Shown: one piece after another, positions 8,201 through 64,000 of the stretch
How positions within the stretch are numbered: the stretch's first letter is position 1
How the letters are laid out: every line of letters begins with the position of its first letter
From: Bilabrum cf. latius
Lineage: Eukaryota
NCBI GenBank assembly: GCA_965178125.1
Contig: OZ237766.1
Location: 248,001-312,000, forward strand
Length of the DNA: 64,000 nucleotides
Direction of reading: 5' to 3'
Notes under the pieces: model-generated
Seen by the model: only the letters and a program-made list of their open reading frames with translations
Database searches by the model: none
Told to the model about the DNA's origin: nothing
Position numbers and translations under genes: made by a program

Positions 8201-8616
8201 GAGTCAAGTATGTGTTGTCCTTGATGGTGTCCTCAAACGCGTTGTCAATGACACCCGGCAACACCAAACCGAGCACGATCGCAACGATGCCTAGCACAGC
8301 AACACTACTGCCCTGCGAGTACAGTTAGGAGAGATTTGGAAAAATGTGATGACAGCGAGTGCGTGAAAACTCTTGCAATTGCTGTCAAGACCATCACCGA
8401 TAGCCTTGGAACCAGCACAACACACCAAAATCAATATTGGCAGGCTGCTACGTTGTGAATGCTTTAGCTGTTGCCTGGCAGGCGAATGTTGAGCTAGCTA
8501 TTCACAAACATGTGTAAATCCGAAGCTGCTACCGCGGTACTACACATAGATTGTACATGGGTTGGGGTACCAGTCCAGATTACGCACACGGCGCGAGTTG
8601 GTAATGTGGCACACAT
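5208..8616 (-). CDS. CD36/scavenger receptor class B-like membrane protein
   Basis: N- and C-terminal TM helices. VYISNITNP...PYAFRK and FIDVDPVSG resemble CD36 motifs. ORFs 7785-8297 and 5208-7775 are joined by TAG at 7785. Probable short first exon MCATLPTRAVC from 8616, spliced to ~8313. TGA stop. Confidence 0.8.
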
Positions 8617-26516: not shown

Positions 26517-26840
26517 GCCCTCAGAGTGGCATACAAAAGGCAATTAGAGCAGCAGGAGGTTGAAGTTACCTTTGTCGACCGATGGGTCTGGCCGGGGATC
26601 CACGGATCCAATGATACTGGGGCTACCAGCACACTCAATAGCCCAAGCAGCCTAATGTCTGATAATTAAATACAGTTCATATCGAAGCGGGGGTACACAT
26701 GCTCGATGCAGTGTAAATTGCGACACTGCCTGGACTTCTAGGTATGCAACTCGGAGCAAGCCGTCGATTTGGGACCAGTCCCAGTACTCACGTGCAATTG
26801 ATAGAATGTGTATTGACAAATCGCCAGCAGTGTAAACAGT

Positions 26841-27905
26841 ATGCGGCACAAGGGTGAACGACGGCGTGATGCCGATCATTTGCATTCATTTGGGGAGCTG
26901 CTCTCTCTGTTCAGATATGCGGGCAAGACTCTTGTGACAACTGGAGCAGGGATAAGCACTGCTTGCGGGATTCCTGACTTTAGATCGAAAGGGTCCGGCC
27001 TATACGATATCATTCGATCCGTGGGGAGCGACCTTTTGGTTGAGCCTTAGGAGATGTAAGTGGTTGCATCAGGCGGAATTTGCTGGTACCACGCGTGCGT
27101 CTGAGTTTATGATTTGCCATATGGTGACCCGATACGTTCTACATTACTTCGCAGATTCGATATAAGGAGGTTTAAGGAAGAACCGGGCATCTTTTATGCC
27201 GCTGCCCCGCTGCTGTACGAGAATTTTGGCGATATCCGACCAAGTGCAGCCCATCGGTTCTTGCGGGTATTGCAGGACCGCCAAAAACTGCTCCGATGCT
27301 ATACTTAGAATATTGATGGGCTCGAGGAACGCGCCGGTCTCGCTCCGGCGAAGACGATCCAGTGCCACGGTACGCTAGCTTCGCTGTACTGCATGTCTTG
27401 CCGCAAGAAGAGTCCTGTGCTGGATCGGCTGCGAGATGTGCTGCAAGGAGAACCTGTCAAATGTAACCGACTCATATCACCGAAGGGGACTGCTGCCAGG
27501 GGACGTGGCAGGGGCCGAGGTAGAGGCACGGGGAGAGCAGGTCCCAAATTGGACTACCGGGGGCCCCAGGCTGCCTACGATGGCTCGCGCATTGCACGAA
27601 GTTCTCCTGAAACGTAGCCAGGAGAATTTACCGGGTCTGCCTGTGGCCCGCCTGTCCTACCCTCCCTTCCCGCACCACCAACACAGGGCAGCGGGGAGGT
27701 GTTGACGCGCCTCAATGGCACTGCCACGAGTAGCAATGGGGTGGGATCTGCTTCCAGTGGCAGTGGAGTGGGCTTTGCTTCCAGTAGCAATAAGGTGGGT
27801 CCTGAATCCGGTGGCACCGACTAGAGCGGTTCAGAGCTTATACGCCCAGCTTCAGCTTCTGCGTATTCGTCGTCACACGCGCATCCACCGTCGTCATCAT
27901 CATCA

Positions 27906-27959
<54 letters not shown>

Positions 27960-43900: not shown

Positions 43901-45127
43901 CGGGAGGACGAGGAGGCCCCCGCCGAGGACGCGGGGGATGTGCGGGCTCGGCTGGCCGTGGCGGCCGCGCGGGAAGCCGCTGGCCTTGACGGATCCGACG
44001 GTGGTGACCCGGAGGACGACGATGAAGATGAAGATGAAGACCAGGTGCCCCCTGGTGCGAGGAGGAGCCCGCACGTCGCCGTGGCGATCGCCCGGTCCAG
44101 GGCCAGCGGCTCCAGGGGGAAGCGAACGAGGGGGGGTGCTTCCGAGGGGGGTCGTAGCAAGATGTCCATGGGCCTGCCTGCTTCTGCCATGGGTTAGAAG
44201 GCACCGCAGTCGCTGGCTGTGCCTCCTCCCGTTCCACCCGCGGTGCGGCTGATGCTTCGTGTGAGGGCACGCGTGCTCTCGCCCGACGATTTCGATGCCG
44301 TGCACGGGGCCAGCAGGAGGGCTTGCTTCGTCACGGTGCACGAAGAGGCAGCCGTGGCGGGTGCCAGCGCGGGCGGTGATGCGGAACATGTGCCGACGGC
44401 GCCGCGCATCGGGGATCTCCCCGGCGGGGCACAGGCCCTGGTGCCGCCCTCGGCGGATGCGCTTGCCAGGCAGCACGTGCACGGGCTGCTGCTGGCACCC
44501 GGTAGGGGTGGTCAAAGTGGTGGCGGCGGAGAGAGCGTTGGGAGTGGTCAAAGTGGCAGCGGCGATGGGGCCATGGCAGTGGTGGACGAGGAGGGCCTCA
44601 GGCAGGCGAGGGGCGAGGCGGCTGCCGAGGCTGCGGCCGAGTCCAGGGGATCCACCGGTGGATTGCTGGGTGTGCTGGCGAGGGATCTGATGGAAATGCT
44701 CGCGGCGGACGCGGCAGGTTCCGCTGATGTGCGCGGCGCCGATTCAGGTGGTGCCACTGGCGCGACGTTCGCGGAAGTGTCCGCGGAGATGCGCGCGCCC
44801 CTTCCGGGTGACGCCGCAGGCACGGGACACTTAGAAGGTGCATCGCACGATTGTGCTGGTGGTGATGGTGATCCCGATGGGGCCGATCCGATCCCAGGAG
44901 GCTGCGAAGACCGCGCCTGGGCCATGTGCCAGCCAGAGGGCCGTGCCCTGTGCGCGGGTGTGGTGGAGAATGCACTGCGGCTGGTCATCGGGGATGCAAT
45001 GGGAAGCGCGGAGGGGGCGGGGGCCTTCTTGGCCGAAGGAGAGACGCAGGGCGATGGTGCTGGAACTGAGGGTGGGCGAGGTGGTTATCGCCCGCTTGCT
45101 AGTCGGGCTGTGCTGCTGGACGGGTGA
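34961..45127 (+). CDS. CFAP65: Cilia- and flagella-associated protein 65-like (ASH/MSP Ig-like domains), ~3388 aa, apparently intronless
   Basis: WRPGGEYIKKLQVKNVG...YALPASKFFSMDFPEP and repeated LDFG...LRN modules. Five ORFs joined by TAG at 36368, 37379, 42362 and 44195. TGA stop. Confidence 0.8.
37739..37826 (+). repeat. (GGTGCT)n hexamer repeat (Gly-Ala) in the CFAP65-like gene
   Basis: Perfect tandem run. Confidence 0.95.
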
Positions 45128-45388: not shown

Positions 45389-46821
45389 TCACTCCACCTG
45401 GATCCACACCTCGTTGTGCTGCGGACATAAAGTTGAGGAGCAAAAAATGATAGTAAAAGGCATCGGAGACGAAGGGGGCCATTCGAGGCACCTTCAGGTG
45501 AGTGCAGTGCAATGCACTGTGTACCACTCACGCGGTTGAACAGGGTGAAGGGGGAATCGTACGAGGCCCAGATGGGGGACCACCGGGTGTTCATCACGGG
45601 CGTGTACCCATCTGCCTTGAGGTCGGCGAGGAGGCTTGCCTGCGTGCTCTTGAACTCATCCTCGCTCGGGAACCCGCCGTACACGGCCGAGGCGATCTTG
45701 AGGCCCGAGGGCATCTGGCTGATGCTGATCTTGTCCGACTTGGGCACGTCCTGCAGGCTCTTGGAGAATGCCGAGGGCACGAAGAAGGAGACCCACCAGT
45801 TCTGGGTGTCGTTGGTCTGGGAGATGACAGGGTGCGTCATCTGCGGGGATAGCATGGGACAGCAGCAGGCTAGGGTAGGGTGGTGCGGGGATTCGGCAAC
45901 TCACCGAGGGGTCCCAGAGTGCACATGATTCCCGCAGCAATACATTTTTTTAAACGCTGGAAAGCGCCTGTTCCTACAAATACTGCCGCTCTTCTTGCCA
46001 AGGCAACGCAGCACGGCAGGCGGGGCCCAGTGAAGCGTCGTCACTGACGGAATGCCGTCATCGTGCATCAACTCACGGGAATCTTCTGGTGCTGGTCATT
46101 GTCTCCCTCAATGTAGTCGAAGTTAGCCTGGAAACCCTCCTGTGTGGAAGCCTGCCAGTCCCCCTGCACGCTGGCGGTGGACCAGAACTCGAGTGTGTTG
46201 GCGGCGTAGCTTCGCACCTGGTAGGTCGTCTTATTGGCGACGAGGTCGAAGCAAGGAGCCTCAATCTGCGTGACTTGAGAACAATTAGCGAGCTGTCTTA
46301 TGTGTGTTACTGTACGTACAGGTTTCGAGGGCTTCAACGAACTGTACTCATCAACGCCTGCAGCAACTCATCAAGCCAAAGGCTTGCCACTTTAGATTGC
46401 CTTCAGCAAGTCAAAATGATTGTAAACGACGAACACGGCTAAATTTATACTCCTATACCAAAGCTACGGCATCTTATAATGCAATAATGCTTGCAGGTCC
46501 AGAAACAAGACACCACGTATTTCTGCACGATTCGTGGTCATCACCAAACAAGCAACCAATTTGCTTCGGTTATGCACCATACCAGGGCTTTATTTGATCG
46601 ATCATCAAAACTGAATTCACAGTAGGCGAAAATGTGGAGCCATGAAGCGCCAAACATCGCAGGGCAACGCAAGAAGCGTCCCCACGTCACGCCATCAAAT
46701 CACCGCATGTCAGCAGGAGCTCATCCCTATGTCTCACGTTCTTGTCGTAGGTGTAGCAAGGAGGGCCCTATTGAGCAGAGACAGCAGTAGCAAGTGCGAT
46801 GGCAGCGGCAACAGCGAACAT
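45389..46821 (-). CDS. Secreted SOUL heme-binding family protein; exons 46821-46738, 46265-46077, 45840-45532, 45418-45389
   Basis: IEAPCF, YQVRSY, FDYIEGDNDQHQKIP|MTHPV, VSFFVP, YDSPFTLFNR|HNEVW. Canonical gtgag...cag introns. TAG at 46768 after the signal peptide. TGA stop. Confidence 0.9.
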
Positions 46822-47183
46822 TTTCGTTTACTATTTCTTTAGCTTGTGGATGGAATGCAGCGTCACCGTCAAGGTGCTGACAGCAACAGTTACGAGCAGT
46901 TTTAAAGTATACCAGATAGCGTCAAAGTGCAACGCCGCAGTCACTGTCTGCGGCAGTTGAACTCTACGAAACAACTGCAAGCCTCATTAATTTAGTAATG
47001 CCCGCAGATACAACGGCCTTTGTTATACTATATGTGCGTTCATTCGGGTAATGGCTGATATTACCGGATGTACAACAAGCGCTAATCCATTCCACGACGT
47101 TCCATTTAGCTGGATGTCACAAAGCTGTTAACGAGTATGACAAGCAGCACACTGAGGGACAAGCATACGCAATCATTGAGTAA

Positions 47184-48415
47184 TTATGTACTCGACCCTG
47201 CTGCCTGCAGCATGGCAACGCACTCGTCATGCCCCCCCAGCCTGGCTGCCTCCAATGGTCTCACCACCCTGGTCCCGCCGGCCCCATCCTCCACCTCGCC
47301 CTTGATCTCCAGTCCGCCCGCCAGCTTGCCCAGCTTCAGCCTCTTCGCAAGCTCCATGGGCCTGCCCTCAGCAGCTGCCCTGAAGACTCTTCCAGCGTCC
47401 CTCTTGGCATCGACCGCCCGCCTCCATTTGGCCAGGTGTCCCACCCAGGGGGCGTAGTACCTCAGCAGCTTGGCAGCTTCAAAGTGCCCGTTGTTGAATG
47501 CCACGTGATACGGGTATTTTCCAAACTGTGGTGCTTATAACGGGTGTCTCATAATCTGGCGACAGCAAGATACGCTGCATGCATACGCGCGGCGCTGCAA
47601 TCCCATCCGTGTTCTTGCAGCACATTGAATTGTTGAATGATAGGTGGTAAACGCATACGCTAGCTGGAATTCCATCCGCGGCTCGATTAATGCCAACCAC
47701 TCGCCCCGCGCGGCTGAGGCTGCTAGAAGCTCACCCTAGTAACTGCGTGTATGTCGGCACCTAGGACCAGCAGCCTACGTATCACCACGCAGTCTCCTCG
47801 AGTTCCTGCGTAGTGCAATGCCGTAAACCCACCCTGCACGAACATGATTAGAACAAGATCTCGATATGCGTGACCTCCAAAACAAGGGATCGCAACGAAA
47901 ATATCGACATGCCAAGGTACTGCACAGAATAACGCATCGAATGAGTACTTCTGCCATCAAAGTAAATCTATGTATGCTCTCACATGGTTGCCCCAGTTCA
48001 CGCGTGCGCCTGACCTTACTAGCAACCCGCAAATATCAGCGTGGCCATTCATCGCGGCGCCCATCAACGGAGAAGCTTCTCGCCTTGTCTACGCAGATCA
48101 CAACGAATTACACATGCATATTAGATACATTCCAGTCGGCAACCCTACCAGACGTGCGAAGTGTGTTTCGGCGCGTGCCAGATCCGGGTGCCCGAGAACG
48201 GGGCGCTCTCGTCAGAGGCTCACATGATGCGGCATGAGCAGAGCCGCGCCACCTCTGATTATCTCTTCGCATTTAGCATAGTCGCCATCGCTGGCTGCTT
48301 TGGTTAGCGCAATACGTGTATCGTCATGATTCTCCGCCGTAGGAGCGGGTTGCACTCCACCAAACACTCCCTGCGGCATGGCCGGCGGACCCGCCCTGCA
48401 TTCGTAAGTGGCCAT
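47184..48415 (-). CDS. Short ankyrin-repeat protein; exons 48415-48224, 48088-47984, 47833-47735, 47525-47184
   Basis: Phase-0 exons SPLMGAAMNGHADIC and TALHYAGTRGD...LGADIHA. Terminal exon is paralogous to 48700-49041. TAA stop. Confidence 0.8.
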
Positions 48416-48699
48416 TTTGTGAGTCACACTGAATTCGTATCAGTCATTCGGTAAGACATCTGACAAAAAATTGGATTATCTTACATTCACGGGTACGGGT
48501 CAATCTCAAAAGATGTTGTCGCTGGCGGTCCTGGTGCTTAGCAGTGCACTGCAGTTGCACCAGAGGGCAGTTACGATGACTGTTGTCCATCGGCAGGCCA
48601 ACAATGTCTCCAGAAGTTACGCACGGAGAACCCAATAAACGCTGGCATGCGTCACTCTGCCGCCTCCTCGAGCAACCTCACACACTCGTCATGCCCAGA

Positions 48700-51600
48700 T
48701 CACCCCATCGCCTCCTCGAGCAACTTCACGCACTTGTCATGACCCCCCAGTTGAGCTGCCTCAAGCGGACCTAGCACCCTGGCACCGCTCCGAGTCGATC
48801 CGTCCTTCAGCTGGCCCTTGATCTCCAGCCCGCCTGCCAGCTTGCCCAGTCTCAGCCTCTTTGCCAGCTCCATGGGCCTGCCCTCAGCAGCTGCCCTGAA
48901 GACTCGCCCAGCGTCCCTCCTGGCCTCGACCGCTCTCCTCCACAGAGCCAGATACACCCACCGGGGGGTATACGTTTCTAGTTGTCTGGCAATGTCATGG
49001 TGAGACGTTCGGTATGCGACATCGATCGAAGTTTCACCATTCTGCATATATTTGTATGCAGGTTATGAAATAATGTCTCACTAAATTGGTTTATTCGTTC
49101 AGCCGACAGGCAGATGCACGCGTTTGCATCAATAATTTGTCAGTAATAAAATAAAAAAAATCATCCTGAACATAAAAAAGCGTGATGTGAAAACAAATCC
49201 AATGCGAACTCACATTCGCGCACGCTCTCGGCCGCGCCCCCTTGGACAGCAGCAGCTCGCACACGGAGGCATGGCCGTTCCCGGCAGCCAGACTGAGCGG
49301 CGTGTCTCCTTCCTGCAAGGGATCTCATATAGAACAAATACCGAACAAAGCTACGCAGTGCCCAGAGCCGCGCACTACACGATTTCTACACATTTATCAC
49401 CATGTCTACCTCAGGCCAGTCTGTCGCAGCCTTGCAAGTATCAGGCCTATACTTGCAATCGGACCCAGCTGACCATACAGCTAGCTCATGGTCGAGGCAT
49501 ACATAACATGGCCCGCACTCGGTTGTAGCGAGTGGTTGCGTATGCAAGGACTGCCCTCGAGTGGAGCCGTGGGCAGCAACACCAACCATGGTTAGAACCA
49601 CAGTCTAGATGAGGATCTCACTCTGTCAATTCTGTCGACCATCGCCCCCTTGGACAGGAGCAGCTTGCACACTTCGACGTGACCATCTCCAGCAGCCAGA
49701 CCGAGAGGCGTGAATCCATCCTGCAAGGGAACTCATATAGAACCAATACCGAACAAAGCTACGCAGTGCCCAGAACGGCGCACTACACGATTTCTACACA
49801 TTTATCACCATGTCTACCGCAGGCCGGTCTGTCGCAGCCTTGCGAGTATCAGGCCCATACTTGCACTCGGATCCAGACGCCCATACAGCTAGCTCGTGGT
49901 CGAGGCATACATAACATGGCCCGCACTCGGTTGTAGCGAGTGGTTGCGTATGCAAGGACTGCCCTCGAGTGGAGCCATGGGCAGCAACACCAACCATGGT
50001 TAGAACCACAGTCTAGATGAAAATCTCACTTCATTACTCTCGATGTTTGCCCCCTTGGACAGGAGCAGCTCGCACACTTCGGCATGGCCATTCTCAGCAG
50101 CCAGACCGAGAGGCGTGCATTCATCCTGCAAGGGAACTCATATAGAACCAATACCGAACAAAGCTACGCAGTGCCCAGGGCCGCGCACTACACGATTCCT
50201 ACAGCAGTATCACAATGTCTTCCTCAGGCCAGTCTGTCGCAGCCTTGCGAGTATCAGGCCCATACTTGCACTCGGATCCAGACGCCCATACAGCTAGCTC
50301 GTGGTCGAGGCATACATAACATGGCCCGCACTCGGTTGTAGCGAGTGGTTGCGTATGCAAGGACTGCCCTCGAGTGGAGCCATGGGGTCCGACACCATTA
50401 ATGGTAATTCAGGACCACAGTCCAGCTGAAAATCTCACCATGGCAATTGTAGCGACCATCGCCCCCTTGGACAGCAGCAGCTCGCACACGTCGGCATGGC
50501 CATTCTTAGCAGCCAGGCCGAGAGGCGCGTGCACATACTGCAAGGGAACTCATATAGGACCAATACCGAACAAAGCTACGTTGTGCCCAGAACGGCGCAC
50601 AACACGATTTTTACAAAAGTTTTACCACGTTTTCCGCAGGCCAGTCTGTCGCGGTCGAGCAATTACCACGCCTATACAAGTAATCGGATCATGCTGACCA
50701 CACAGCGTGCAGTGAAGAGAGGCATAACATGGCATGCACTCGGCTGTAGCGAGTGGTTCCGTATGCAAGGACTGCCCACGAGTGCAGCCATGGGCTGCGA
50801 CACCATCCATGGTTAGGACCAGAGTCAAGCTGAAAATCTCACTTCATTACCCTCGATCTGCGCCCCCTTGGACAGGAACACCTCGCACACGTCAGCATGG
50901 CCATTCTTGGCAGCCAGACCGAGAGGCGTGTGCTGATACTGCAAGGGAACTCATATAGGACCAATACTGAACAAAGCTACGTAGTGCCTAGAACGGTGCA
51001 CAACACGATTCCTACAAAAGTTTTACCACGTTTTCCGCATGCCAGTCTGTCGCGGTCAATCAATTACCACGCCTATACAAGCAATCGGATCTAGCTGACC
51101 ACACAGCGTGCAGTAAAAGCAGGCATAACATGGCATACACTCGGCTGTAGCGAGTGGTTCCGTATGCAAAGACTGCCCTCGAGTGCAGCCATGGGCTGCG
51201 ACACCATCCATGGTTAGGACCACAGTCTAGATGAAAATCTCACTTCATTACCCTCGATCTGCGCTCCCTTGGACAGCAACAGCTCGCACACGGAGGCATG
51301 GCCATTCCTGGCAGCCAGACCGAGAGGCGTGCATTCATCCTGCAAGGGAACTCATATAGAACCAATACCGAACAAAGCTACGCAGTGCCCAGGGCCGCGC
51401 ACTACACGATTCCTATAGCAGTATCACAATGTCTTCCTCAGGCCAGTCTGTCGCAGCCTTGCGAGTATCAGGCCCATACTTGCACTCGGATCCAGACGCC
51501 CATACAGCTAGCTCGTGGTCGAGGCATACATAACATGGCCCGCACTCGGTTGTAGCGAGTGGTTGCGTATGCAAGGACTGCCCTCGAGTGGAGCCATGGG

Positions 51601-54600
51601 GTCCGACACCATTAATGGTAATTCAGGACCACAGTCCAGCTGAAAATCTCACCATGGCAATTGTAGCGACCATCGCCCCCTTGGACAGCAGCAGCTCGCA
51701 CACGTCGGCATGGCCATTCTTAGCAGCCAGACCGAGAGGCGTGCATCCATTCTGCAAGGGAACTCATATAGAACCAATACCGAACAAAGCTACGTTGTGC
51801 CCAGAACGGCGCACAACACGATTTTTACAAAAGTTTTACCACGTTTTCCCCAGGCCAGTCTGTCGCGGTCGAGCAATTACCACGCCTATACAAGTAATCG
51901 GATCATGCTGACCACACAGCGTGCAGTGAAGAGAGGCATAACATGGCATGCACTCGGCTGTAGCGAGTGGTTCCGTATGCAAGGACTGCCCACGAGTGCA
52001 GCCATGGGCTGCGACACCATCCATGGTTAGGACCAGAGTCAAGCTGAAAATCTCACTTCATTACCCTCGATCTGCGCCCCCTTGGACAGGAACACCTCGC
52101 ACACGTCAGCATGGCCATTCTTGGCAGCCAGACCGAGAGGCGTGTGCTGATACTGCAAGGGAACTCATATAGGACCAATACTGAACAAAGCTACGTAGTG
52201 CCTAGAACGGTGCACAACACGATTCCTACAAAAGTTTTACCACGTTTTCCGCATGCCAGTCTGTCGCGGTCAATCAATTACCACGCCTATACAAGCAATC
52301 GGATCTAGCTGACCACACAGCGTGCAGTAAAAGCAGGCATAACATGGCATACACTCGGCTGTAGCGAGTGGTTCCGTATGCAAAGACTGCCCTCGAGTGC
52401 AGCCATGGGCTGCGACACCATCCATGGTTAGGACCACAGTCTAGATGAAAATCTCACTTCATTACCCTCGATCTGCGCTCCCTTGGACAGCAACAGCTCG
52501 CACACGGAGGCATGGCCATTCCTGGCAGCCAGACCGAGAGGCGTGCATCTATCCTGCAATGGAACTCATGTAGGACCAATACCGAACAAAGCTACGCAGT
52601 GCCCAGAGCCGCGCACTACACGATTTCTACACATTTATCACCATGTCTACCTCAGGCCAGTCTGTCGCAGCCTTGCAAGTATCAGGCCTATAGGTGCAAT
52701 CGGACCCAGCTGACCATACAGCTAGTTCTAGGTGAAGGCAGGCAGAACCTGGCCCGCACTCAGTTGTAGCGAGTGGTTGCGTATGGAAGGATTACCCTCG
52801 AGTGGAGCCATGGTCCGCGACACCACCCATGCCAGTGGTTTGGAACACAGTCCAGCTGAAAATCTCACCATGGCAATTCTCTCGATCCGCGCCCCTTTGG
52901 ACATCAGCAGCTCGCACACTTCGACGTGACCATGTCCAGCAGCCAGACCGAGAGGCGTGCATCTATCCTGCAAGGGAACTCATATTGGACCAATACCGAA
53001 CAAAGCTACGCAGTGCCCAGAGCCGCGCACTACACGATTTCTACACATTTATCACCATGTATTCCGCAGGCTAGGCTATCGCAGTCTTGCAAGTATCATG
53101 CCTATACAAGCAATCGGATCCAGCTGACCATACAGCTAGCTCATGGTGAAGGCAGGCATAACATGGCATGCACTCGGTTGCAGCGAGTGGTTCCGTATGG
53201 AAGGATTGCCCTCGAGTGGAGCCATGGGCAGCGACACCATCCATGGTCAGGGCCACAGTCTATCTGGAGGGCTTACCTTGCGATGTGTCTCAATCTGCGC
53301 CCCTTTGGACAGGAGCAGCTCGCACACTTCGGCATGGCCATTTCTGGCAGCCAGACCGAGAGGCGTGTGCAGATACTGCAAGGGAACGCATGTAGGACCA
53401 ATACTGAACAAAGCTTCCAGGTGCCCAGGCCGCGCACTACACGATTCCTACACACAAGTATCACCATGTTTACCTCAGGCCAGTCTGTCGCAGTCAAGCA
53501 AGTATCAGGACTATACTTGCAATCGGATCCAGCTGACTATACAGCAAGAGCACAGTACAGGCAGGCATAACATGGCCCGCACTCGGTTGCAGCGAGTGGT
53601 TCCGTATGCAAGGACTGCCCTCGAGTGGAGCCGTGGGCTGCGACACCATTAATGGTCAGGACCACAGTTTAGATGCAAATCTCACCCTGCGATGTCTCTC
53701 GATGTTTGCGCCATTGGACAGCAGCAGCTCGCACACGTCGGCATGACCATTATCAGCAGCCAGACCGAGAGGTGTGAATCCATCCTGCAAGGGAACGCAT
53801 GTAGGACCAATACCGAACAAAGCTACGCAGTGCCCTGGGCTGCGCACTACACGATTCCTACACAAGTATCACCATGTTTACCTCAGGCCAGTCTGTCGCA
53901 GCCTTGCAAGTATCAGGCTCATACGAGCAATCGGATCCAGCTGACCATACAGCAAGAGCATAGTAAAAGCAGGCAGAACCTGGCCCGCACTCGGTTGTAG
54001 CGAGTGGTTCCGTATGGAAGGACTGCCCTCGAGTGCAGCCATGGGCTGCGACACCATCCATGGTTAGGACCACAGTTTAGATGCAAATCTCACCCTGCAA
54101 TATTCCTCGACCTGCGCTCCCTTGGACAGCAGCAGCTCGCACATGGAGGCATGGCCATTCCTGGCAGCTAGGCCGAGAGGCGTGCATCTATTCTGCAAGG
54201 GAACGCATGTAGGACCAATACCGAACAAAGATCCGCAGTGCCCTGGGCCGCGTACTAAACGATTCCTAGATCTACACAAGTATTGGACTACCATGTTTTC
54301 CTCAGGCCAGTCTATCGCATCCTTGCAAGTATCAGGACTATAGGCGCAATCGGATCAAGCTGCACATACAGCTAGCTCTTGGTGAAGGCAGGCATAAGAT
54401 GGCCCGCACTCGGTTGCAGCGTGGTTTCGTATGGAAGGATTACCCTTCAGTGGAGCCATGGGCTGCGACACCATCCATGGTTAGGCCCACAGTCTATCCA
54501 AAGATCTCACGTTGTCCTTGGCGTCTATCTGCGCCCCCTTGGACAGCAGCAGCTCGCACACGTCAGCATGGCCATTCTTGGCAGCTAGGCCAAAAGGCGT

Positions 54601-57277
54601 GATTCCATCCTGCAAGGGAACGCATATTGGACCAATACCGAACAAAGATACGCAGTGCCCTGGGCCGCGTACTAAACGATTCCTTCACAAGTATAACCAT
54701 AATTGCCTCAGGCTAGTCTGTCGCAGCCTTGCGAGTATCCGGGATCAGGCCTATACGTGCAATCGGATCCAGCTGACCATACAGCAAGCGCACAGTGAAG
54801 GCAGGCACAACATGGCCCGCACTCGGTTGTAGCGAGTGGTTTCGTATGGAAGGATTGCCCTCGAGTAGAGCCAAGGGCTGCGACACCATTAATGGTCAGG
54901 ACCACAGTTTATCTAAAGGTCTCACGTGGGTCTTGGCCTCGATGTTTGCTCCCTTGGACAGGAGCAGCTCGCACACTTCGGCATGGCCATTCTCAGTAGC
55001 CAGACTGAGAGGCGTCTATCTATTCTGCAAGGGACCGCATGTAGGACCAATACCGAACAAAGCTACGCAGTGCCCAGAACGGCGCTCAACACGATTCCTA
55101 CACAAGTATCACCATGTTTACCTCAGGCCAGTCTGTCGCATCCTTGCAAGTATCAGGCCCATACGAGCAATCGGATCCAGCCGATCATACAGCTAGCGCG
55201 CAGTAAAGGCACGCATAATATGGCCCGCACTCGGTTGTAGCGAGCGGTTCCGTATGGAAGGTTTGCCCTTCAGTGGAGCCATGGGCTGCGACACCATCCA
55301 TGGTTAGGATCACAGTCTAGATGAGGATCTCACCCTGATGGTTCCATCAACGCTCGCCCCCTTGGATAGCAGCAGCTCGCACACTTCGGCATGACCATTC
55401 CGGGCAGCCAGACCGAGAGGCGTGCATCTATCCTGCAAGGGAACGCATATTGGACCAATACCGAACAAAGATACGCAGTGCCCTGGGCCGCGCACTACAC
55501 GATTCCTACACAAGTATCACCATGTTTACCTCAGGCCAGTCTGTCGCAGCCTTGCGAGTATCAGGCCTATACTTGCAATCGGATCCGGCTGCATATACAG
55601 CTAGCACACAGTGAAGGCAGGCACAACATGGCCCGCACTCGGTTGTAGCGAGTGGTTCCGAATCGAAGGTTTGCCCTCGAGTAGAGCCATGGGCTGCAAC
55701 ACCATTAATGGTCAGGACCACAGTCTAGCTGAGAAGCACATTTCACTTACCTCGATGTTTGCTCCCTTGGACAGCAGCAGCTCGCACACGTCGGCATGGC
55801 CATTTCTAGCAGCCAGATCGAGAGGCGCGTGCACATACTGCAAGGGAACGCATGTAGGACCAATATCGAACAAAGCTTCGCAGTGCCCTGGGCCGCAAAC
55901 TACATGATTTCAACACAAGTATTGCCATGTTTTCGTCAGGCCAGTTTGTCGCAGAGTATCAGGCCTATACGTGCAATCAGATCATGCTGCCCATACAGCT
56001 AGCGCACAGAAAAGCAGGCATAACATGGCCCGCACGCGGTTGTAGCGAGTGGTTTCGTATGGAAGGATTGCCCTCGAGTGCAGCCATGGGCTGCGACACC
56101 ATCCATGGTTAGAACCACAGTCTAGATGAGGATCTCACCCTGATGGTTCCATCAACGCTCGCCCCCTTGGATAGCAGCAGCTCGCATACGGAGAACTGGC
56201 CATTCTCAGCAGCCAAACCGAGAGGCGTGTATTCATCCTGCAAGGGAACGCATGTAGGACCAATACTGAACAAAGCTTCCAGGTGCCCAGAGCCGCGCAC
56301 TACACGATTCTTACACAAGTATCACCATGTTTTCCTCAAGCCAGCCTGTCGCAGCCTTGCAAGTATCAGGCCTATACGTGCAATCGGATCCAGCTGACTA
56401 TACAGCAAGCGCACAGTGAAGGCAGGCATAACATGGCCCGCACTCGGTTGTAGCGAGTGGTTCCGTATGGAAGGACTGCCCACGAGTGCAGCCATGGGCT
56501 GCGACACCATTAATGGTCAGGACCACAGTCTAGCTGAAAATCTCACCATGCCAATTCTGTCGACCTTCGCCCCTTTAGACAGCAGCAGCTCGCACACGTC
56601 GGCATGACCATTCCGGGCAGCCAGACCGAGGGGCGAGTGTTCATCCTGCGTGGGAAGCACGAGGGGAGCAGATTTGAAGTTAGATAGACAGGTAGTGCCC
56701 TGAACCATGCAGTGCACGCTACCTACGCCAGTCCCAACCGTGGCAGTCAAAACCTTGAAAGCTGCAGAATGGTCAAAGTCCAGGCACGTTCATTACATGT
56801 ATGAGGCCATTCAGCTAGCTCGCCTGCAACGGCACACACCTACTAGTAAGCCACAGCCGGTAGGGACGAGTGATCTACCAGGCAGTGCATCACCTCCTTT
56901 GCGATCATTAGCTAATACATTGCCAATGGTGAGTATGTCAGTGAACTTGCTTATCTCACCTTGCTCATGGACTCTATCTGCGCCCCCTTGGACAACAGCA
57001 GCTCGCATGCCTACTTCCATCCATTTGCTGCTGCTTTTCCCAGGGCTGACCAATTAAACTGCGATATTTTCGCAAGATACAGCGATCACATATTCGTGTT
57101 AGCACTCAGTTAATCATTGCAATGATCATAAGAGACGCAAGATGCACGCATGGACCTACCTCCGCCTCGTTCTTTTCCTCGATCGTAGCAACAACTTCAT
57201 CTCTGCCTAGCAATTCTACAAGTTCTTCTTGATTCGTCAATGCATCATGCAGCTCCTTTCCGAGCTAGGATAAAGGC
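48700..57277 (-). CDS. Ankyrin-array protein: N-cap exon (~57277-57161), 20 single-repeat ankyrin exons (57058 down to 49214) and terminal exon 49041-48700
   Basis: Exons of 99, 96 or 87 nt, all phase 0, with cag| acceptors and |gtgag or |gtaag donors. Consensus xxxTPLGLAAxNGHAxVCELLLSKGAxIxxxxx. TGA at 48700. First exon not located. Confidence 0.9.
49214..56645 (-). repeat. Tandem array of 19 exon+intron units, period ~400-420 bp
   Basis: Recurrent intron text (ctgcaagggaac...gaacaaagctacgcagtgccc...ggcccgcactcggttgtagcgagtgg...ctcac on the + strand). Confidence 0.95.
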
Positions 57278-58047
57278 CTGCAATTCGTGAAGTAATGACG
57301 TGCGTTGACAAATATTTGACACAACGTGGTAGCCAATCTTCGCACTATCCTAAATCTAATCCGGATCATGTCGCCTATGAGTCTCACATGACCAACACTA
57401 AGTTTACAGTATCGACAACTTCTGATTAAGGCTTGTAGGTATATATGTATTTGGAGGGCGGTGGGTTGCAGTCTGGTGGGTTGGGCGGAGCGCCGACGGT
57501 TGCAACCATTTTGCCGCGCAAATACGGAACAATGGTCCATGATTGTTCGATTATTTGCTAACTGGCTACAGTAGCCATCGTGTGAAAACTTAGCTTGTAG
57601 TTTTAATCTCACATAGCCATCGGAACCCGCACATCATCATCTGACCCAGCCAGTGCTGCTTCGTGGCCGATCGGAGCCATGCCTCACCGAACCGCAGCCC
57701 GCTGTCAGGCTGATCCGCCGAAGTGGCGTCCAGGTACGCGCTCGTCACACCCTTCAGCGCCCTGGCGCGCAGGATCCGCCGGAGCTGGTCCGCCGCGCGA
57801 TCCTGCTCGTGGGTGGTTCCGCTGGACTGCGAGGGGTCGGGGGCGATGCTCTAGACTTGGCTGGATGTGTGCACTGGAAAACAATTGAAACAATTCAACC
57901 AATCAAACCATGGTATACGAGCTATCAAATCAATCCACAGAAGAGACTTAAACCAGGGACCCACGACACACGCGAGGTCATGCAATCCCCCGCAGCCCGA
58001 TCCACCAGCACGCACCACAGCCTGCTGGCCAAGGCCCCACCCAGCAA

Positions 58048-61000
58048 TCACTCCCTCGGCACCTCACACTGCATTTTGCCCAAGGACATATTCACGTACA
58101 TCACATCCCCATCATCTCCCACCATGCGTTTCCAACCAGGCGGCAGGGGCGGTGCTGGTGGCCTGACCCCCTCCCTCCTCTCCGCCGGCACCCATCGCTG
58201 TTCCCTGGGCCCCGACCATAACCCGCTCCCCCCCTCACCGTACGCACTCGTCACACGGGCCAGAGAGGCCACGTGCCCACCCACCCTCCCGCTCGCACCA
58301 TCCCGCCCCAGCAGCTCCCGCCGCAGGTGCCTGTCCCACAGCGAGGCCTCACCTGCCACCAGAGGACGCACCCGGCCCAGCACGCCCTCCACGCCCCACC
58401 CGAAAATCGCCCGCGTGCCTGCGCTCGGGGGCCGCAGCACGGCCATGGGCCCCGCCTGCACCACGGCCCGCTCGGCCTCCCCGCGGTCCTGCAGCACGCC
58501 GGCCCCCACTGCCTCGGCCAGCTCCCCCTCGAAGGCATGCCCGCCCACCACGCCCATGGAAAGACCATCCACTGCCCCGGCCACCTCACTCGTCACACTG
58601 CCTCCCCCCTCCACCGCCCCGTCCCTGGCAATTGGCCCCAGCTCGTCCGCGGCCCGCAGCACTGCCTCCTCCATCAGCAGGTCAGCGGCTGTCTGGCCAG
58701 AGGATTCGGAGCCATCGGCGGGGAGTATTGGTGCTGGTGCTGGTGCTGGTGCTGGTGCTGGTGCTGGTGCTGGTGCTGGTGCTGGTGCTGGTGCTGGTGC
58801 TGGTGCTGGTGCTGGTGCTGGTGCTGGTGCTGGTGCTGGTGCTGGTGCTGGTGCTGGATCGTCTGCCCCTGCCCCGCTCGCAGCAGGGCCACGCTCCTGA
58901 GGTGCCGCTGCAGCACCATCATGCGATGCACCCGTCCCCCGCTCCCGCTCCCTCACCGCCTCTCGCCCCACCAGCGAGGCTAGTGGCAGAGGACCCATGC
59001 ACTCGTCAGCATGAGCAAGCAGAGAACGCTGCCCAACCACCCACGCACCGCAAGCCGCATCGTCCACAGACACATCCCCTGCACCTGCACCTACACCTGC
59101 ACCTTTGGAGTCAGACCCGCCCTGTGACGGATGCACCCCTCCCCGCATCAGCACACCCGCGTCCACCGGCCCGTACAGCATCCCCATCAGCGCCCCGATG
59201 GCCTCCTCCTGGGGAACACGGGACCGGGGGTGGGCCTAAAGCAGGCCCCGCAGCACGGCCTCCAGAGCAGGGGGACAGTCCGCCTGACTGGGCAGCCGAG
59301 GGATGTCCCTGTCTCCGTACATGCTCTCGGGGTCCGGCAGAGACACGAGTGCCCCGCCCCCGGCATGCGCCTGCTCCGCCATCAGCTCCCACACCATCTT
59401 GCCTGCTGCCCACGCATCGCTGGAAGCATACGCCTGCGCCAGCGTGCGCATGGGTCTGTCCCACGCGTCAGTCACCTGCCCCCCGCTGGCCCTTCGCCTC
59501 ACCTCTGGGGCCATGGCACCCATGCCCCCCTGCATGCTCAGCACAGAGACCGCCAGCAGGTCGGGCTGAGCGTCCTTGCCGCAGCCCACGAACGGCCAGG
59601 CGGTCGATGATGGTGGTGAGGATAATGACGGTGATCCAGATGATGGCAATGCACCCTTGCTGCCCTCCTCTGTTGCAGCCGTGGGTGCAGCTGGTGGCCC
59701 CGATGGTGCGGCAGTAGGCACCTGCTTGCTGGATCCTGCAGGCGCGCTAGGATCGTCCTCGCCCTCTTCCACCACGAACACGCCCGGGTCCGACTCTTGC
59801 ACCTCTACCTGCTTTCCTGAGGTTGCATCCGGGGCTGTAGTCGATGATGCCCCGGCACCTGCTGCAGAGCTTGATGCTGCAGTCGCACTTGAACCCGACA
59901 GGCTTTCACCAGCCCGCTCGTCCTGCTCCTGCTGCATCATGAGGTTGATGCGGGCCCTCAGCGTCTCGTCCACCTTCACTCTCAGCCCGCCCTCAAACAG
60001 CAAACAACCCTCCCCCCAGTCGCCCAGCACGGCCCGACCGTCCGCCGTTAGAAACACGTTGTCCGCCTTCACGTCCCGGTGCACCACCCCGCGGGACCGG
60101 GCGTGCTGCAGGCCCTGCAGCACCTAAAGCAGCCACAGAGCCGCCTGCCGCCCCGAGATCATGCCACCTGCCCGCAGCGCCGCTTTCGCCGCCCCCTGCA
60201 GCGTGGTGGGGAACCGCTCCGTCAGCATCCAGGTGGTGCGCCTGCGGGGGATCCAGCCGAACCAGGGCAGCATCAGCTGCGTTGAGCCCAGCCAGGCGTG
60301 GTGCACGGCAAGCACATTCGGATGCCCGTGCAGCACCACTCGCCCCCTACTGTCCACTCGATCCCCCAGCACCCTCGGCAGCAGCCAGTCGTGCTGCTGT
60401 TTCTGCGCCACTCCAGCGTAATAGTCCCGGTCTGGACCCCCCGAGGTTGACCCCTTCAGCACCAGGTGCTGCCAGCCGGCCCACGGGTTGATGCCTGACC
60501 CAGCTCCACCATCGTGCGGTGCACCCTTAGCACCACCATCCGGTGCATTGGGCTAGTCCACAGCCACCACGGCAAAGACCAGCCCGTTGCACCCCTGGCC
60601 CTCCGCCGCCTGCTGCCCCGCCACGGCCCCGAAGACAGACCCGTCCCAGAACAGAGGCCTCTTCCTGCCCTGCTGCCCCGCCTCCAGCCGACCGGGAGTG
60701 CCCCCCCGTCGCTGGCTCTGGCCCCCGTCCTGCACCCGGATCCACCAGGCTCCGCTCCACTCGGCCCCCAGCCGCTCCAGCACGCTCACATCACCGACGC
60801 TGCTGGGGTCCATGTGCGCGGGCTGTGAGCCAGTGGCTAGGATGAGCTTGGGCCGTGGATGGTGCGCGGTGAGGTCGCCAGAAACGGGTCCGTTGGCGGG
60901 CTGATTGCGGGACAGCACCGCCTCCATGTGGGCCTGGGGCAGGGTAGAATTGGGCGTGTCAGGGTCTGCCGGGCTGGCTCTGGCAGCGGCTGCCTGGGCC

Positions 61001-63960
61001 AGTCGGACGCCGGCGTGCTGCAGGGCGTACCGGGCTTGGGCGGTAGCTGTACACCTGGATTTGAATAACTGCAGCTCACCACGGCACACGAGTAGCTTGT
61101 ACCTTGTGATCGCCTCTTCTTGAATGGCACGCAGATTGGCACTCGATGCCGAAGTTGACAGTGTGATCTCACTGGCCTACTTCGCGATTTGTACCGTGTC
61201 CAATCCCTGCACAATTGGTATGCCGGAAGTATCGCACAGCTTTAGTAGCAGATAGAGCGACAATGTGGATGACCCCTGCCCTCTGGTCATGGCGTCCTTG
61301 AAGCCGTTTGGGGCGTCGTCTGGGACCAACTGGGCGGGAATCTTTCCATCATTTGACTTGGATGTTGTGCTAGCTCCGTGATGAAGCAAGGCAACTGCGC
61401 ATCCTACATGCTTATTCATACATGCATTATGGAGCGAGGCTTTGCTCTACTTGTTATTGGCCTCGATCTGCGCCCCCTTGGACAGCAACAGCTCGCACAC
61501 GGATGCACAGCCATTGAAGGCAGCTAGTGCGAGGGGCGTGTTTCCATCCTGCGAGGGACTCACGAGGGGAGCAGACCTTAACACAGCTAGGCAGTGCCCT
61601 GGTACAGGCATCGCAGCAGAAATACACCGATCGAAAGCATATCCATCACAGGCCAGTCAGGTGCACCCAAGCCAGCTCCAAGTCCATCCACGACTTGCAT
61701 CAAACCAACCGGCTGGCTTCCTCGCTAGCCAACACGTATCTAGGCCTCAGTCAAAAGGAGCGAGTGACCTTCACTGCCGCGTCGCATGTAGTGGAATCAT
61801 TGGATGTGCCTCGGGCGATTTGAAGACAGACAGTATGCATGCATATCTCACCTTGCTCTTGGCCTCGATCTGCGCCCCCTTGGCAAGCAGCAGCTCGCAC
61901 ACAGAGGCATGGCCCTTGGCAGCAGCCCATGCGAGGGGCGTGTCTTCATTCTGCGAGTAACTCTGGAGGGGAGCAGACCTGAACAAAGCTAGGAAGGGCC
62001 CTGATACAGGCATCGCAACACAGATATACCAATCGAAAGCATGGCCACCACAGTTCAGTCAGGCGCACCCAAGCCAGCTTCAAGCCCGTCCACGACTTGC
62101 ATCAGACCAACCGGCTGATTTGCTCGCTAGCCAACCAGCATCTAGGCCTCAGTCAAAATCAGCGAGTGACCTTCACTGCTGTGTGGCATGGTGTGGAATC
62201 ATTGGATGTGACACGGGCGATTTGAAGACAGACAGTATGCATGCATATCTCACGTTGTTCTTGGCCTCGATCTGCGCCCCCTTGGACAGCAACAGCTCGC
62301 ACACGGATGCATGGCCATTCCTGGCAGCCTATGCGAGGGGGGTATTTCCGAACTGCGAGGGACTCATGAGGGGAGCAGACCTTAACACAGCTAGGCAGTG
62401 CCCTGGTACAGGCATCGCAGCAGAAATACACCGATCGAAAGCATATCCATCACAGGCCAGTCAGGTGCACCCAAGCCAGCTCCAAGTCCATCCACGACTT
62501 GCATCAAACCAACCGGCTGGCTTCCTCGCTAGCCAACACGTATCTAGGCCTCAGTCAAAAGGAGCGAGTGACCTTCACTGCCGCGTCGCATGTAGTGGAA
62601 TCATTGGATGTGCCTCGGGCGATTTGAAGACAGACAGTATGCATGCATATCTCACCTTGCTCTTGGCCTCGATCTGCGCCCCCTTGGCAAGCAGCAGCTC
62701 GCACACAGAGGCATGGCCCTTGGCAGCAGCCCATGCGAGGGGCGTGTCTTCATTCTGCGAGTAACTCTGGAGGGGAGCAGACCTGAACAAAGCTAGGAAG
62801 GGCCCTGATACAGGCATCGCAACACAGATATACCAATCGAAAGCATGGCCACCACAGTTCAGTCAGGCGCACCCAAGCCAGCTTCAAGCCCGTCCACGCC
62901 TTGCATCAGACCAACCAGCTGGTTTGATCGCTAGCCAACACGTATCTAGGCCTCAGTCAAAATCAGCGAGTGACCTTCACTGCTGTGTGGCATGGAGTGG
63001 GATCATTGGTTGTGACACGGGCGATTTGAAGACAGACAGTATGCATGCGCATCTCACCTTGTCCTTGGCCTCGATCTGCGCCCCCTTGGACAGCAGCAGC
63101 TCGCACACTGAGGCATGACCATTCAAGGCAGCATGTGCAAGGGGGGTGTCTCCATTCTGCGAATGACTCTGGAGGGGAGCAGACCTGAGCAAAGCTAGGA
63201 AGGGCCCTGGTACAGGCACCGCAGCAGAAATACACCGATCGAAAGCATATCCATCACAGGCCAGTCAGGTGCACCCAAGCCAGCTTCAAGCCCGTCCACG
63301 ACTTGCATCAGACCAACCAGCTGGTTTGATCGCTAGCCAACACGTATCTAGGCCTCAGTCAAAATCAGCGAGTGACCTTCACTGCTGTGTGGCATGGAGT
63401 GGGATCATTGGTTGTGACACGGGCGATTTGAAGACAGACAGTATGCATGCGCATCTCACCTTGTCCTTGGCCTCGATCTGCGCCCCCTTGGCCAGCAGCG
63501 GCTCACACACGGAGGCATGGCCATTCCTAGCAGCCAGTGCGAGGGGGGTGGTTCCATTCTGCGAGGGACTCATGAGGGGAGCAGACCTGAACACGACTAG
63601 GCAGGGTCCTGGTACAGGCATCGCAACACAGATATATCAATCAAAAGCATAGATACCGCAGGCCAGTAGGGTGCACCCAAGCCAGCTTCAAGCCCGTCCA
63701 CGCCTTGCATCAGACCAACCGGCTGATTTGATCGCTAGCCAACCAGCATGTAGTCCTCAGTCAAAAGGAGCGAGTGACCTTCACTGCCGTGTGGCATGGA
63801 GTATGGCCATTGGATGTGACCTGGGCGATTTGAAGACAGACGGTATGCATGCGCATCTCACCTTGTCCTTGGCCTCGATCTGCGCCCCCTTGGACAGCAG
63901 CAGCTCGCACGCCAACTTCCAGCCGTTTGCTGCAGATTTAGCCAGTGCTGCCCACTGATG
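58048..63960 (-). CDS. Ankyrin-array + PINK1-like protein kinase + C-terminal WW domain; 5' end lies beyond the window
   Basis: Ankyrin exons start at 63960, 63558, 63156, 62754, 62352 and 61950, then a long exon 61548-58048 read through TAG 61447, 61177, 60553, 60124 and 59236. Motifs GQGCNGLV, VLK, HPNVL, HRDVKADN, DWG, GGMGAMAPEV, DAWAAG. WW LPPGWKRM...YVN. TGA stop. Confidence 0.9.
58730..58857 (+). repeat. (GGTGCT)n hexamer repeat (Pro-Ala on the coding minus strand)
   Basis: About 21 perfect units. Confidence 0.95.
61450..63960 (-). repeat. Tandem array of exact 402-bp units (99-nt ankyrin exon + 303-nt intron)
   Basis: Exon starts are spaced exactly 402 bp. An 804-bp two-unit block is nearly identically duplicated. 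Confidence 0.95.
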
Positions 63961-64000
63961 CTGCGCATCATGTCGTAATATTTTGTGATCAAATGCTCTT

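Follow-up and report, generated by a model that had tools for sequence, protein, structure and literature searches.

The stretch of the Bilabrum cf. latius genome analyzed here (64,000 nt of contig OZ237766.1, positions 248,001 to 312,000; hereafter the window, with coordinates counted from its first letter) carries, on its minus strand, a gene in which each of 20 ankyrin repeats is encoded by an exon of its own. We conclude that this gene probably encodes an intact, expressed, soluble, all-ankyrin protein of about 804 residues, whose array changes by unequal recombination of in-frame cassettes and whose loops are under selection. From its N-terminus, the protein would run through a helix pair, a cap repeat and 19 array repeats to the product of an ankyrin-like C-terminal exon. 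Growth and continuing change of the array would proceed through unequal homologous recombination between 408-bp cassettes. A cassette pairs one phase-0 exon with an intron of some 310 nt, and as all cassettes keep the frame, units can be gained, lost or exchanged without disrupting it. Recombination and gene conversion would hold the introns and the exon framework alike within the array (concerted evolution), and selection would keep different, or drive apart, the terminal codons of each exon. Where one exon stops and the next starts, the adjoining codons together encode the loop between two repeats, which would line the usual binding face.

Exons were called by scanning the minus strand for YAG, an open frame and GT(A/G)AG, with one ankyrin repeat read per exon. 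The 20 exons (E1 to E20) comprise 14 of 99 nt, five of 96 nt and one of 87 nt, encoding 33, 32 or 29 residues each (the ankyrin unit has about 33), and since all 20 lengths are multiples of three, every exon is of phase 0-0. E2 through E20 (19 exons, 56645..49214) recur at intervals of 400-417 bp, and the 18 introns between them measure 301-318 nt; Tandem Repeats Finder reports the region 49235..56656 as a tandem array with a period of 408, 18.2 copies, 83% matches and a score of 8592. The preliminary description, made from the sequence of this locus, had counted 20 symmetric phase-0 exons of one ankyrin repeat each, 19 of them in units of about 410 bp, and the count stands: 20 of 20 exons are 87, 96 or 99 nt long. 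E1 (57058-56960) is a diverged, cap-type repeat outside the 408-bp array. The exon consensus reads x3-TPLGLAA-xx-GH-x-x-VCELLLSKGA-x6-7. All seven array exons tested (of 19) scored above the cut-off for Pfam Ank, PF00023 (23.1-35.2 bits vs. 21.1), and in six of the seven, exon residue 1-2 aligned with position 1-2 of the 33-position profile, E17 aligning from position 5, suggesting that one exon corresponds to one Pfam ankyrin unit. E1 fell below the Pfam cut-offs (weak Ank_3 and Ank_2 matches); a hidden Markov model (HMM) made from the array repeats recovered all 20 exons.

The coding sequence (CDS) is 2415 nt long, with 804 codons and a terminal TGA, and is interrupted by 22 GT-AG introns. 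It contains no TAA and three in-frame TAG codons, one each in E1, E6 and the exon preceding E1. The start ATG is itself split by an intron, with AT in an upstream exon and G in the next, and an in-frame TAA lies 13 codons upstream of it. The interval 48700-57277, from which the preliminary description worked, therefore equals the CDS save for the first two bases of the start codon, which are in the upstream exon whose boundary is 57388. Searches of the exons tested, including the N- and C-terminal ones, returned no Pfam family besides Ank, and by Pfam the array gene has no NTPase, kinase, TIR, death-type, NACHT, NB-ARC or Roc-COR domain, its other coding exons being ankyrin repeats. No hydrophobic run in the protein exceeds six residues, and none suggests a membrane segment, and the protein is accordingly read as soluble. 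A protein search with the terminal exon found two distant homologs, P0001 and P0002, both with different N-termini, and an Atlas feature search of the same exon gave, as a lead only, a link at 0.95 to ankyrin clusters. When the window was searched in six frames with the HMM, no inactivated or reverse-strand repeat exons were found, ankyrin units occurring only at the minus-strand exon positions. A plus-strand open reading frame of 236 codons (52860-53570) runs antisense across an array exon and introns; we take it to be a chance frame, as the neighboring units do not hold it open.

Transcription and splicing were assessed with contigs placed on 52400-58700, an interval outside which E13-E20 lie, from runs that are DNA-like (X1-X4, organism A) or RNA-like (X5 and X6, organism B). 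The features of the gene, all on the minus strand, are as follows.

57388..57466, minus: upstream exon, 5' untranslated region (UTR), ending in the AT of the start codon; an RNA-like contig (X5 record 20, X6 record 29) reaches 73-79 nt past the joint 57276/57387.
57278..57387, minus: 110-nt intron (GTGAGA..TTGCAG), whose CT..AC joint is seen in X5 and X6 but in neither X1 nor X4.
57160..57277, minus: exon of 118 nt, the G of ATG and then PLS[TAG]LGKELHDALTNQEELVELLGRDEVVATIEEKNEAE; looks like an N-terminal helix pair, with no Pfam match; contig piece 57160-57276 with 0 other letters.
56960..57058, minus: E1, cap-type, 99 nt, FNWSALGKAAANGWK[TAG]ACELLLSKGAQIESMSK; 79% identical to the cap exon of the upstream (second) array; RNA-like contig piece 56959-57058 with 0 other letters.
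49235..56656, minus: the 408-bp exon-plus-intron tandem array, 18.2 copies.
56547..56645, minus: E2, 99 nt, DEHSPLGLAARNGHADVCELLLSKGAKVDRIGM; Pfam Ank 29.9 bits; joints to E1 and E3.
56139..56237, minus: E3, 99 nt; joints to E2 and E4.
55751..55837, minus: E4, 87 nt, donor GTAAGT, head YVHAPL in common with E17; joint to E3.
55334..55432, minus: E5, 99 nt; Pfam Ank 33.4 bits.
54926..55024, minus: E6, 99 nt, NR[TAG]TPLSLATENGHAEVCELLLSKGANIEAKTH; Pfam Ank 35.2 bits (TAG as Q); joint to E7.
54511..54609, minus: E7, 99 nt, tail AQIDAKDN, similar to tails in the upstream array; joints to E6 and E8.
54094..54192, minus: E8, 99 nt; joints to E7 and E9.
53686..53784, minus: E9, 99 nt; Pfam Ank 35.2 bits; joint to E8.
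53277..53375, minus: E10, 99 nt, donor GTAAGC; from the exon scan.
52869..52967, minus: E11, 99 nt; joint to E12 in X5.
50097..52548, minus: recent 3-unit (1214-bp) duplication.
52458..52553, minus: E12, 96 nt, opening the older copy of the 3-unit duplication; Pfam Ank 28.9 bits.
52057..52152, minus: E13, 96 nt, identical to E16.
51653..51751, minus: E14, 99 nt; 7 bases off E17, six of them within codons 1-4 and the other at base 21.
51244..51339, minus: E15, 96 nt; 2 adjacent bases off E12 (E vs. R).
50843..50938, minus: E16, 96 nt, identical to E13.
50439..50537, minus: E17, 99 nt, E4 head on E14 body; Pfam Ank 23.1 bits.
50030..50125, minus: E18, 96 nt.
49622..49720, minus: E19, 99 nt.
49214..49312, minus: E20, last array exon, 99 nt; Pfam Ank 32.2 bits; followed by a 172-nt intron of a different kind.
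48700..49041, minus: terminal exon, 113 codons and TGA, with an ankyrin-like start (NGETSIDVAYRTSHHDIARQLE) and then a family-specific tail; no Pfam match.

The contigs agree with the spliced structure. Nine of the 15 joints displayed have CT..AC ends exactly at predicted introns: the two upstream introns, E1-E2, E2-E3, E3-E4, E6-E7, E7-E8, E8-E9 and E11-E12. All nine occur in X5 and eight of nine in X6, while none is found in the DNA-like X1 and X4, and the depth of X5 and X6 is 0-5 in intron bins, compared with 25-350 in exon bins. Stretches that X5 and X6 leave uncovered (57464-58307 and the intron bins) were used only as a contrast to the joints. Having GT..AG joints at nine predicted introns, the gene appears to be transcribed and spliced as modeled. 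A 340-nt contig links the upstream exon, the next exon, E1 and E2, and as both of its listed pieces show 0 other letters, two of the TAG codons are present in spliced RNA. E6 is joined to E7, the E6 TAG position itself lying outside the rows displayed.

Combinatorial splicing, which the preliminary description had offered as one source of diversity, found no support: in the spliced contigs, exons are joined only to their immediate neighbors, and the 15 joints displayed, six more having gone undisplayed, include no exon skip within 52400-58700. Five joints, found only in X5 and X6, look odd at first sight (back 918 and 3380; skips of 1970, 1118 and 328). We considered back-splicing, exon skipping or an altered order of units in organism B as their cause and rejected all three, since their flanks, and one loose end, fit consecutive junctions outside 52400-58700, namely E12-E13, E16-E17, E18-E19, E19-E20 and E14-E15 or E17-E18. 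The fit is weaker for the 1118 joint (19/24 on one side). The loose RNA end, at 54531, is the tail of E20 joined to the head of the terminal exon. These joints thus look odd because they were placed on look-alike exons, and all array exons appear to be spliced in consecutively. A separate joint, 54161 to 56568, skips 2406 bases (about six units) in the DNA-like X4 and X1 and in X5; its shorter side is 27 letters, and it could reflect either an array variant with a deletion or an error made when contigs were built through the repeats.

The three in-frame TAG codons would be stops under the standard code. In Bilabrum cf. latius, however, TAG is evidently read as a sense codon, its amino acid most likely being Gln; TGA is a stop, and TAA still appears to be one. 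Ten long frames of the window, 12,219 codons in all, contain 54 TAG, no TGA and no TAA, the last figure being partly by construction, as frames are delimited by TAA; the corresponding off-frames contain many TGA, mostly tens. Frames with in-frame TAG include 27105-30395 (+), 34961-45127 (+) and 58048-61656 (-). In the frame with a Sir2 domain (TAG rendered as X), X lies opposite the Q of TQNIDGLE in the solved sirtuins 5ol0_A and 5h4d_A. In a BLASTP comparison of the large flagellar-protein-like frame with its best named homolog, the alignment is colinear and gapless across two TAG, at both of which the homolog has R, indicating that those TAG are not in introns. In kinases, the residues aligned with TAG were Q, E and S. 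With TGA as the sole stop, the long frames lengthen by only 8-140 codons, most TAA being at or near frame ends. TAA also closes the downstream paralog, and the array gene has one in frame within its 5' UTR. A tRNA scan found no tRNA genes in the 64-kb window.

With TAG as a sense codon, the three TAG are no breaks and the 804-codon frame is intact. That the gene is dead, its TAG being real stops, or that the array was misassembled, we regard as extremely improbable. The three TAG under the standard code would fit such a reading, as would the lack of any DNA-like contig that spans the array. But TAG is in frame throughout the long frames of the window and aligns to a conserved Gln, spliced contigs exist, and the framework of the repeats shows the constraint described below. 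Further, unit-specific contigs from X1 and X4 agree with separate units and show 0 other letters (52696-52875, 53031-53334, 54238-54472 and 55111-55295, among others), although these runs may be the assembly's own source.

The introns of the array are more alike than its exons. Mean pairwise identity was 85.0% among introns (153 pairs) vs. 77.0% among exons E2-E20 (171 pairs), and the introns of this array are mutually 78-100% identical, suggesting that the expansion is recent or ongoing. The claim that the introns are about as conserved as the exons thus understated their likeness. Variation is concentrated at the first 3 and the last 6-7 codons of each exon: the mean p-distance is 0.40 over the first 9 nt and 0.43 over the last 18 nt, compared with 0.14 over the middle 69 nt and 0.15 in the introns, which puts the divergence of the loop codons at about 2.7 times that of the introns next to them. 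At the amino-acid level, repeats are on average 67% identical, a mean that combines 84% for the framework with 25% for positions 1-3 and 27-32. Purifying selection acts on the framework: by the method of Nei and Gojobori the proportion of nonsynonymous differences (pN) is 0.05 vs. 0.25 for synonymous ones (pS), and the ratio of nonsynonymous to synonymous rates (dN/dS) is 0.18-0.27 over methods. Maximum likelihood gave a dN/dS (omega) of 0.27 for 21 framework codons and of 2.53 for 11 variable codons, and fixing omega at 1 for the latter cost 4.49 log-likelihood units (likelihood-ratio test, p = 0.0027).

These variable codons flank each intron, so that the loop between two repeats is encoded partly by the last codons of one exon and partly by the first codons of the next. 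The codons at the two exon ends would correspond to the hairpin/loop that joins repeats in the ankyrin fold. The ankyrin binding face consists of the hairpin/loop and the inner helices, and it is there that the ankyrin repeats of fungal NOD-like receptors (NLRs) vary, according to excerpts of PMC4986451.

Unequal crossover, proposed in the preliminary description, is recorded in the array itself. Three units (1214 bp) have been duplicated, such that 50097-51334 and 51311-52548 differ by 10 mismatches in about 1238 bp; the second array, upstream, carries a 2-unit, 804-bp duplication of its own. The edges of the 3-unit duplication lie in the exon framework of E18/E15 and E15/E12, not in introns. 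Seven of the 10 mismatches fall at the start of E17, where the duplicate units are otherwise identical. This E17 head has the same sequence as that of E4, some 5.3 kb distant; a short patch was therefore exchanged after the duplication. When the duplicate copies were aligned unit by unit, 12 differences were counted, nine of them in 291 nt of exon and three in 923 nt of intron (Fisher p = 0.00026), although the nine exon differences may be only two events. Across the array, identical heads are found with different tails, and vice versa, and distances in neighboring segments are uncorrelated (Mantel r -0.19 to 0.12, all p > 0.15, with the recent copy removed). The units are thus mosaic, and the exchange between units that had been suggested is borne out by both the E4-like first codons of E17 and these uncorrelated distances. 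Together, these data support tandem duplication, patchy exchange and loop diversification.

Concerted evolution appears to act within each array. Intron identity is 85% within the first array and 89% within the second, compared with 52% between the two, where exons are 72% identical. An nhmmer profile of the first array's introns nonetheless detected 6/6 introns of the second, with E values of 6e-8 to 1.4e-4. The homology of introns across arrays, together with their likeness within each, suggests that the cassette predates both genes and that each array was homogenized separately. We infer that the introns serve as recombination substrates.

Several points weigh against the reading that we favor. 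As to selection, the variable codons were picked after their variability had been seen, which biases the omega of 2.53 upwards; recombination among units inflates tree-based tests of positive selection; and at the variable codons the Nei-Gojobori dN/dS is only about 1.0-1.45. The framework pS (0.25) exceeds the intron distance (0.15), such that the contrast between loops and introns may partly reflect introns that are homogenized or constrained. As to splicing, the joints displayed lack 4 of the 13 introns within 52400-58700, X5 and X6 are taken to be RNA-like from their spliced contigs (an automated label, itself a guess, calls X5 'probably DNA'), and contigs are unable to reveal rare isoforms. 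No contig spans the array, and hence the number and order of units depend on the assembly. The assignment of TAG to Gln is founded on one invariant aligned site, with R at two variable sites.

In the principal alternative, the repeats are old, each has a fixed, selected loop for a fixed partner, and the homogenization of introns and framework by gene conversion and unequal crossover makes the loops only look fast. We consider this possible but rather unlikely. In its favor are the excess of framework pS over intron divergence, the Nei-Gojobori ratios near 1, introns that are homogeneous within each array and only 52% identical between arrays, and the tails of E6 and E7, which resemble tails of the second array, as retained old sequence would. 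Yet the likelihood-ratio test departs from omega = 1, and the youngest duplicate has most of its differences (9/12) in exon heads, even if these may be only two events. As the head of E17 was replaced after the duplication, the loops do change.

That the introns are more alike than the exons could also mean that the introns themselves are functional, containing for instance a regulatory element or an intronic RNA, with the ankyrin exons secondary. Diversity is indeed only 0.05-0.12 in columns 121-220 and in the last 40 columns of the intron alignment. We nevertheless hold this to be very improbable. The most conserved part is the branch and acceptor region, as splicing predicts, and the introns have drifted apart between the arrays. 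Rfam gave no matches at E values up to 1 on either strand of 46000-60000, and RNAalifold, applied to 16 of the 18 array introns, returned a minimal covariation term (-0.49 kcal/mol), with a compensated change at 5 of 71 pairs. The nhmmer intron profile found no copies in the window outside the two arrays, and the 3' end of the intron had no exact matches in metagenome contigs.

The array gene is one of three paralogous ankyrin genes that lie side by side in the window. The neighboring features are the following.

61450..63963, minus: second exon-per-ankyrin array, upstream of the first.
58048..61656, minus: long open frame with ankyrin, protein kinase and a WW-like end.
47184..48415, minus: downstream paralog, four exons.

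The second array, read from 63963 to 61450, consists of a cap exon and six 99-nt exons (period 402, 6.1 copies, 86% matches), and includes one in-frame TAG. The block of its 2-unit duplication is repeated at 100%, and in this array too the introns (89%) are more alike than the exons (84%). Its last exon has no donor and reads into a frame of 1202 codons, with five TAG and a terminal TGA, that encodes a protein kinase domain and a WW-like end. The end of this frame, PPLPPGWKRMVGDDGDVMYVNMSLGKMQCEVP, is presumably WW-like, as judged by eye from the motif; no WW domain is among the Pfam matches listed for 58048..61656. As the window stops at 64000, the second-array gene may begin beyond it. The downstream paralog has one ankyrin-like repeat in each of its four exons and ends in TAA; the C-terminal exons of this paralog and of the array gene share 64% identity. 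A protein search with a two-repeat stretch of a neighboring gene returned only generic ankyrin proteins, at 28-50% identity.

The preliminary description had taken the locus for a candidate immune-like receptor. This role is unsupported by the array gene, which has ankyrin repeats only, with no signaling domain and no long hydrophobic run. We infer instead a protein-binding scaffold or adaptor with a binding surface under diversification; it is plausibly a fast-evolving binding protein, not a demonstrated immune receptor. In the immune-like reading, the array would be a member of an ankyrin recognition repertoire directed against viruses or bacteria and diversified by unit shuffling, possibly with alternative splicing. 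Part of the evidence points that way: a cassette architecture like that of the candidate receptors of Ectocarpus (excerpts of PMC3341825), variable codons at the usual ankyrin binding sites, the inner helices and hairpin/loop (excerpts of PMC4986451), an omega of about 2.5 at those codons in mosaic units, and three adjacent ankyrin paralogs, one of which combines a like array with a kinase domain and a WW-like end. Against it stand the lack of any signaling or oligomerization domain in the array gene, the absence of exon skipping among the joints displayed, and the absence of inactivated or reversed repeat exons, both from the introns and from the plus strand. On balance, this reading seems unlikely.

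A further proposal, which we put forward as a distinctly doubtful one, joins the three genes. They would form a diversifying, ankyrin-based recognition family of a protist with UAG as a sense codon, in which long, homogeneous introns placed in the middle of the variable loop recombine and so re-pair half-loops, creating new binding surfaces with the frame always preserved, and in which the ankyrin-only array acts as an adaptor, a decoy or a cassette donor for the ankyrin-kinase paralog. If this were true, ankyrin would be the third repeat type, after LRR and TPR, to take part in exon-cassette recognition, and the first with introns as the evident substrate of exchange. Were unit number and loops found to vary among strains, cassette-type candidate receptors would extend beyond the brown-algal LRR and TPR genes.

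Whatever its partner, the locus offers a clean natural case for how repeat proteins acquire new binding surfaces. Recently expanded repeat arrays that still bear introns are rare, and here the introns provide a built-in neutral yardstick; they also allow one to ask whether introns buffer recombination, per exon-shuffling theory. The reading of TAG has a more practical consequence, as gene prediction in the Bilabrum cf. latius genome fails unless TAG is treated as a sense codon. This reassignment may be the reason that the ankyrin genes have no close homologs in protein collections. The best named homolog of a neighboring gene is from the bicosoecid Cafeteria (42% identity); a literature search found no report of UAG as Gln in stramenopiles or bicosoecids, which is weak evidence of absence.

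Other genes of the window were noted in passing. A frame of about 3390 codons at 34961-45127 (+), apparently intronless, 70% G+C and hydin- or ASH-domain-like, is interrupted only by TAG. The frames at 5211-8324 (-), 24537-26543 (-) and 27105-30395 (+) have CD36, Dicty_CAR-type receptor and Sir2 domains, respectively, with TAG read through. The long genes of the window seem intron-poor compared with the ankyrin genes, which have an intron after every repeat. Two perfect hexamer microsatellites of about 21.5 copies each, CTGGTG at 28636-28766 and TGGTGC at 58729-58857, are both contained in long open frames, in which they encode stretches of Gly-Ala or Ala-Pro.

Among the known systems closest to the array, here on the basis of excerpts of the reports cited, are the LRR-ROCO and NB-ARC-TPR genes of Ectocarpus, in which exon-per-repeat shuffling has been described (PMC3341825; also PMC11378527). 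The precedent named in the preliminary description exists as it was described there. The array gene has in common with these genes, so far as the excerpts go, (i) one repeat per exon, of near-equal length in multiples of three, with in-frame exchange of units (PMC3341825), and (ii) tandem paralogs. Signs of positive selection at ligand-facing residues may be a further likeness, the omega here being 2.53 at sites chosen post hoc in units that recombine, compared with a Nei-Gojobori dN/dS of about 1.0-1.45. It differs from the Ectocarpus genes as excerpted in that its repeat is ankyrin (33 residues, 99 nt) rather than LRR (24 residues, 72 nt) or TPR, in that it has no Roc-COR or NB-ARC domain, a kinase domain being carried by the upstream paralog, in that no inactivated or reverse-strand repeat exons occur in its introns, and in that no alternative splicing was seen among the joints displayed.

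Fungal NOD-like receptors contain ANK, TPR and WD repeats of high internal conservation, defined as at least 85% amino-acid identity over at least 100 residues (excerpts of PMC4986451). As far as that source was excerpted, they resemble the array gene in having near-identical ankyrin repeats within one gene that vary at the inner helices and hairpin/loop, and in combining signs of positive selection with concerted evolution through the reshuffling of repeats within and between paralogs (PMC4986451). Unlike the fungal genes in those excerpts, the array gene gives each repeat an exon of its own with a conserved intron. Its repeats, with a mean identity of 67% (framework 84%, variable positions 25%), are under the 85% criterion given there, and it has neither the NACHT nor the NB-ARC domain of the excerpted receptors.

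One ankyrin repeat per 99-nt exon is not new in itself. In vertebrate ankyrins and others, introns lie at an equal place in successive repeats; there the repeats are old and the introns unrelated in sequence. Street, Rose and Barrick (2006) are reportedly to be named alongside ankyrin genes with regularly placed introns. A literature search found no description of exon-per-ankyrin cassette arrays with conserved introns, which is weak evidence of absence.

A last likeness is to designed ankyrin repeat proteins, in which a fixed framework carries randomized surface positions. The array similarly sets variation in the loop and surface against an invariant framework, TPLxLAA..GH..VCELLLSKGA, and, when the designs are mapped onto the exon, five of the six designed positions appear to be among the most variable in the array, as measured by entropy. 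Unlike the designed proteins, the natural array varies the whole loop, at exon positions 27-33 and 1-3.

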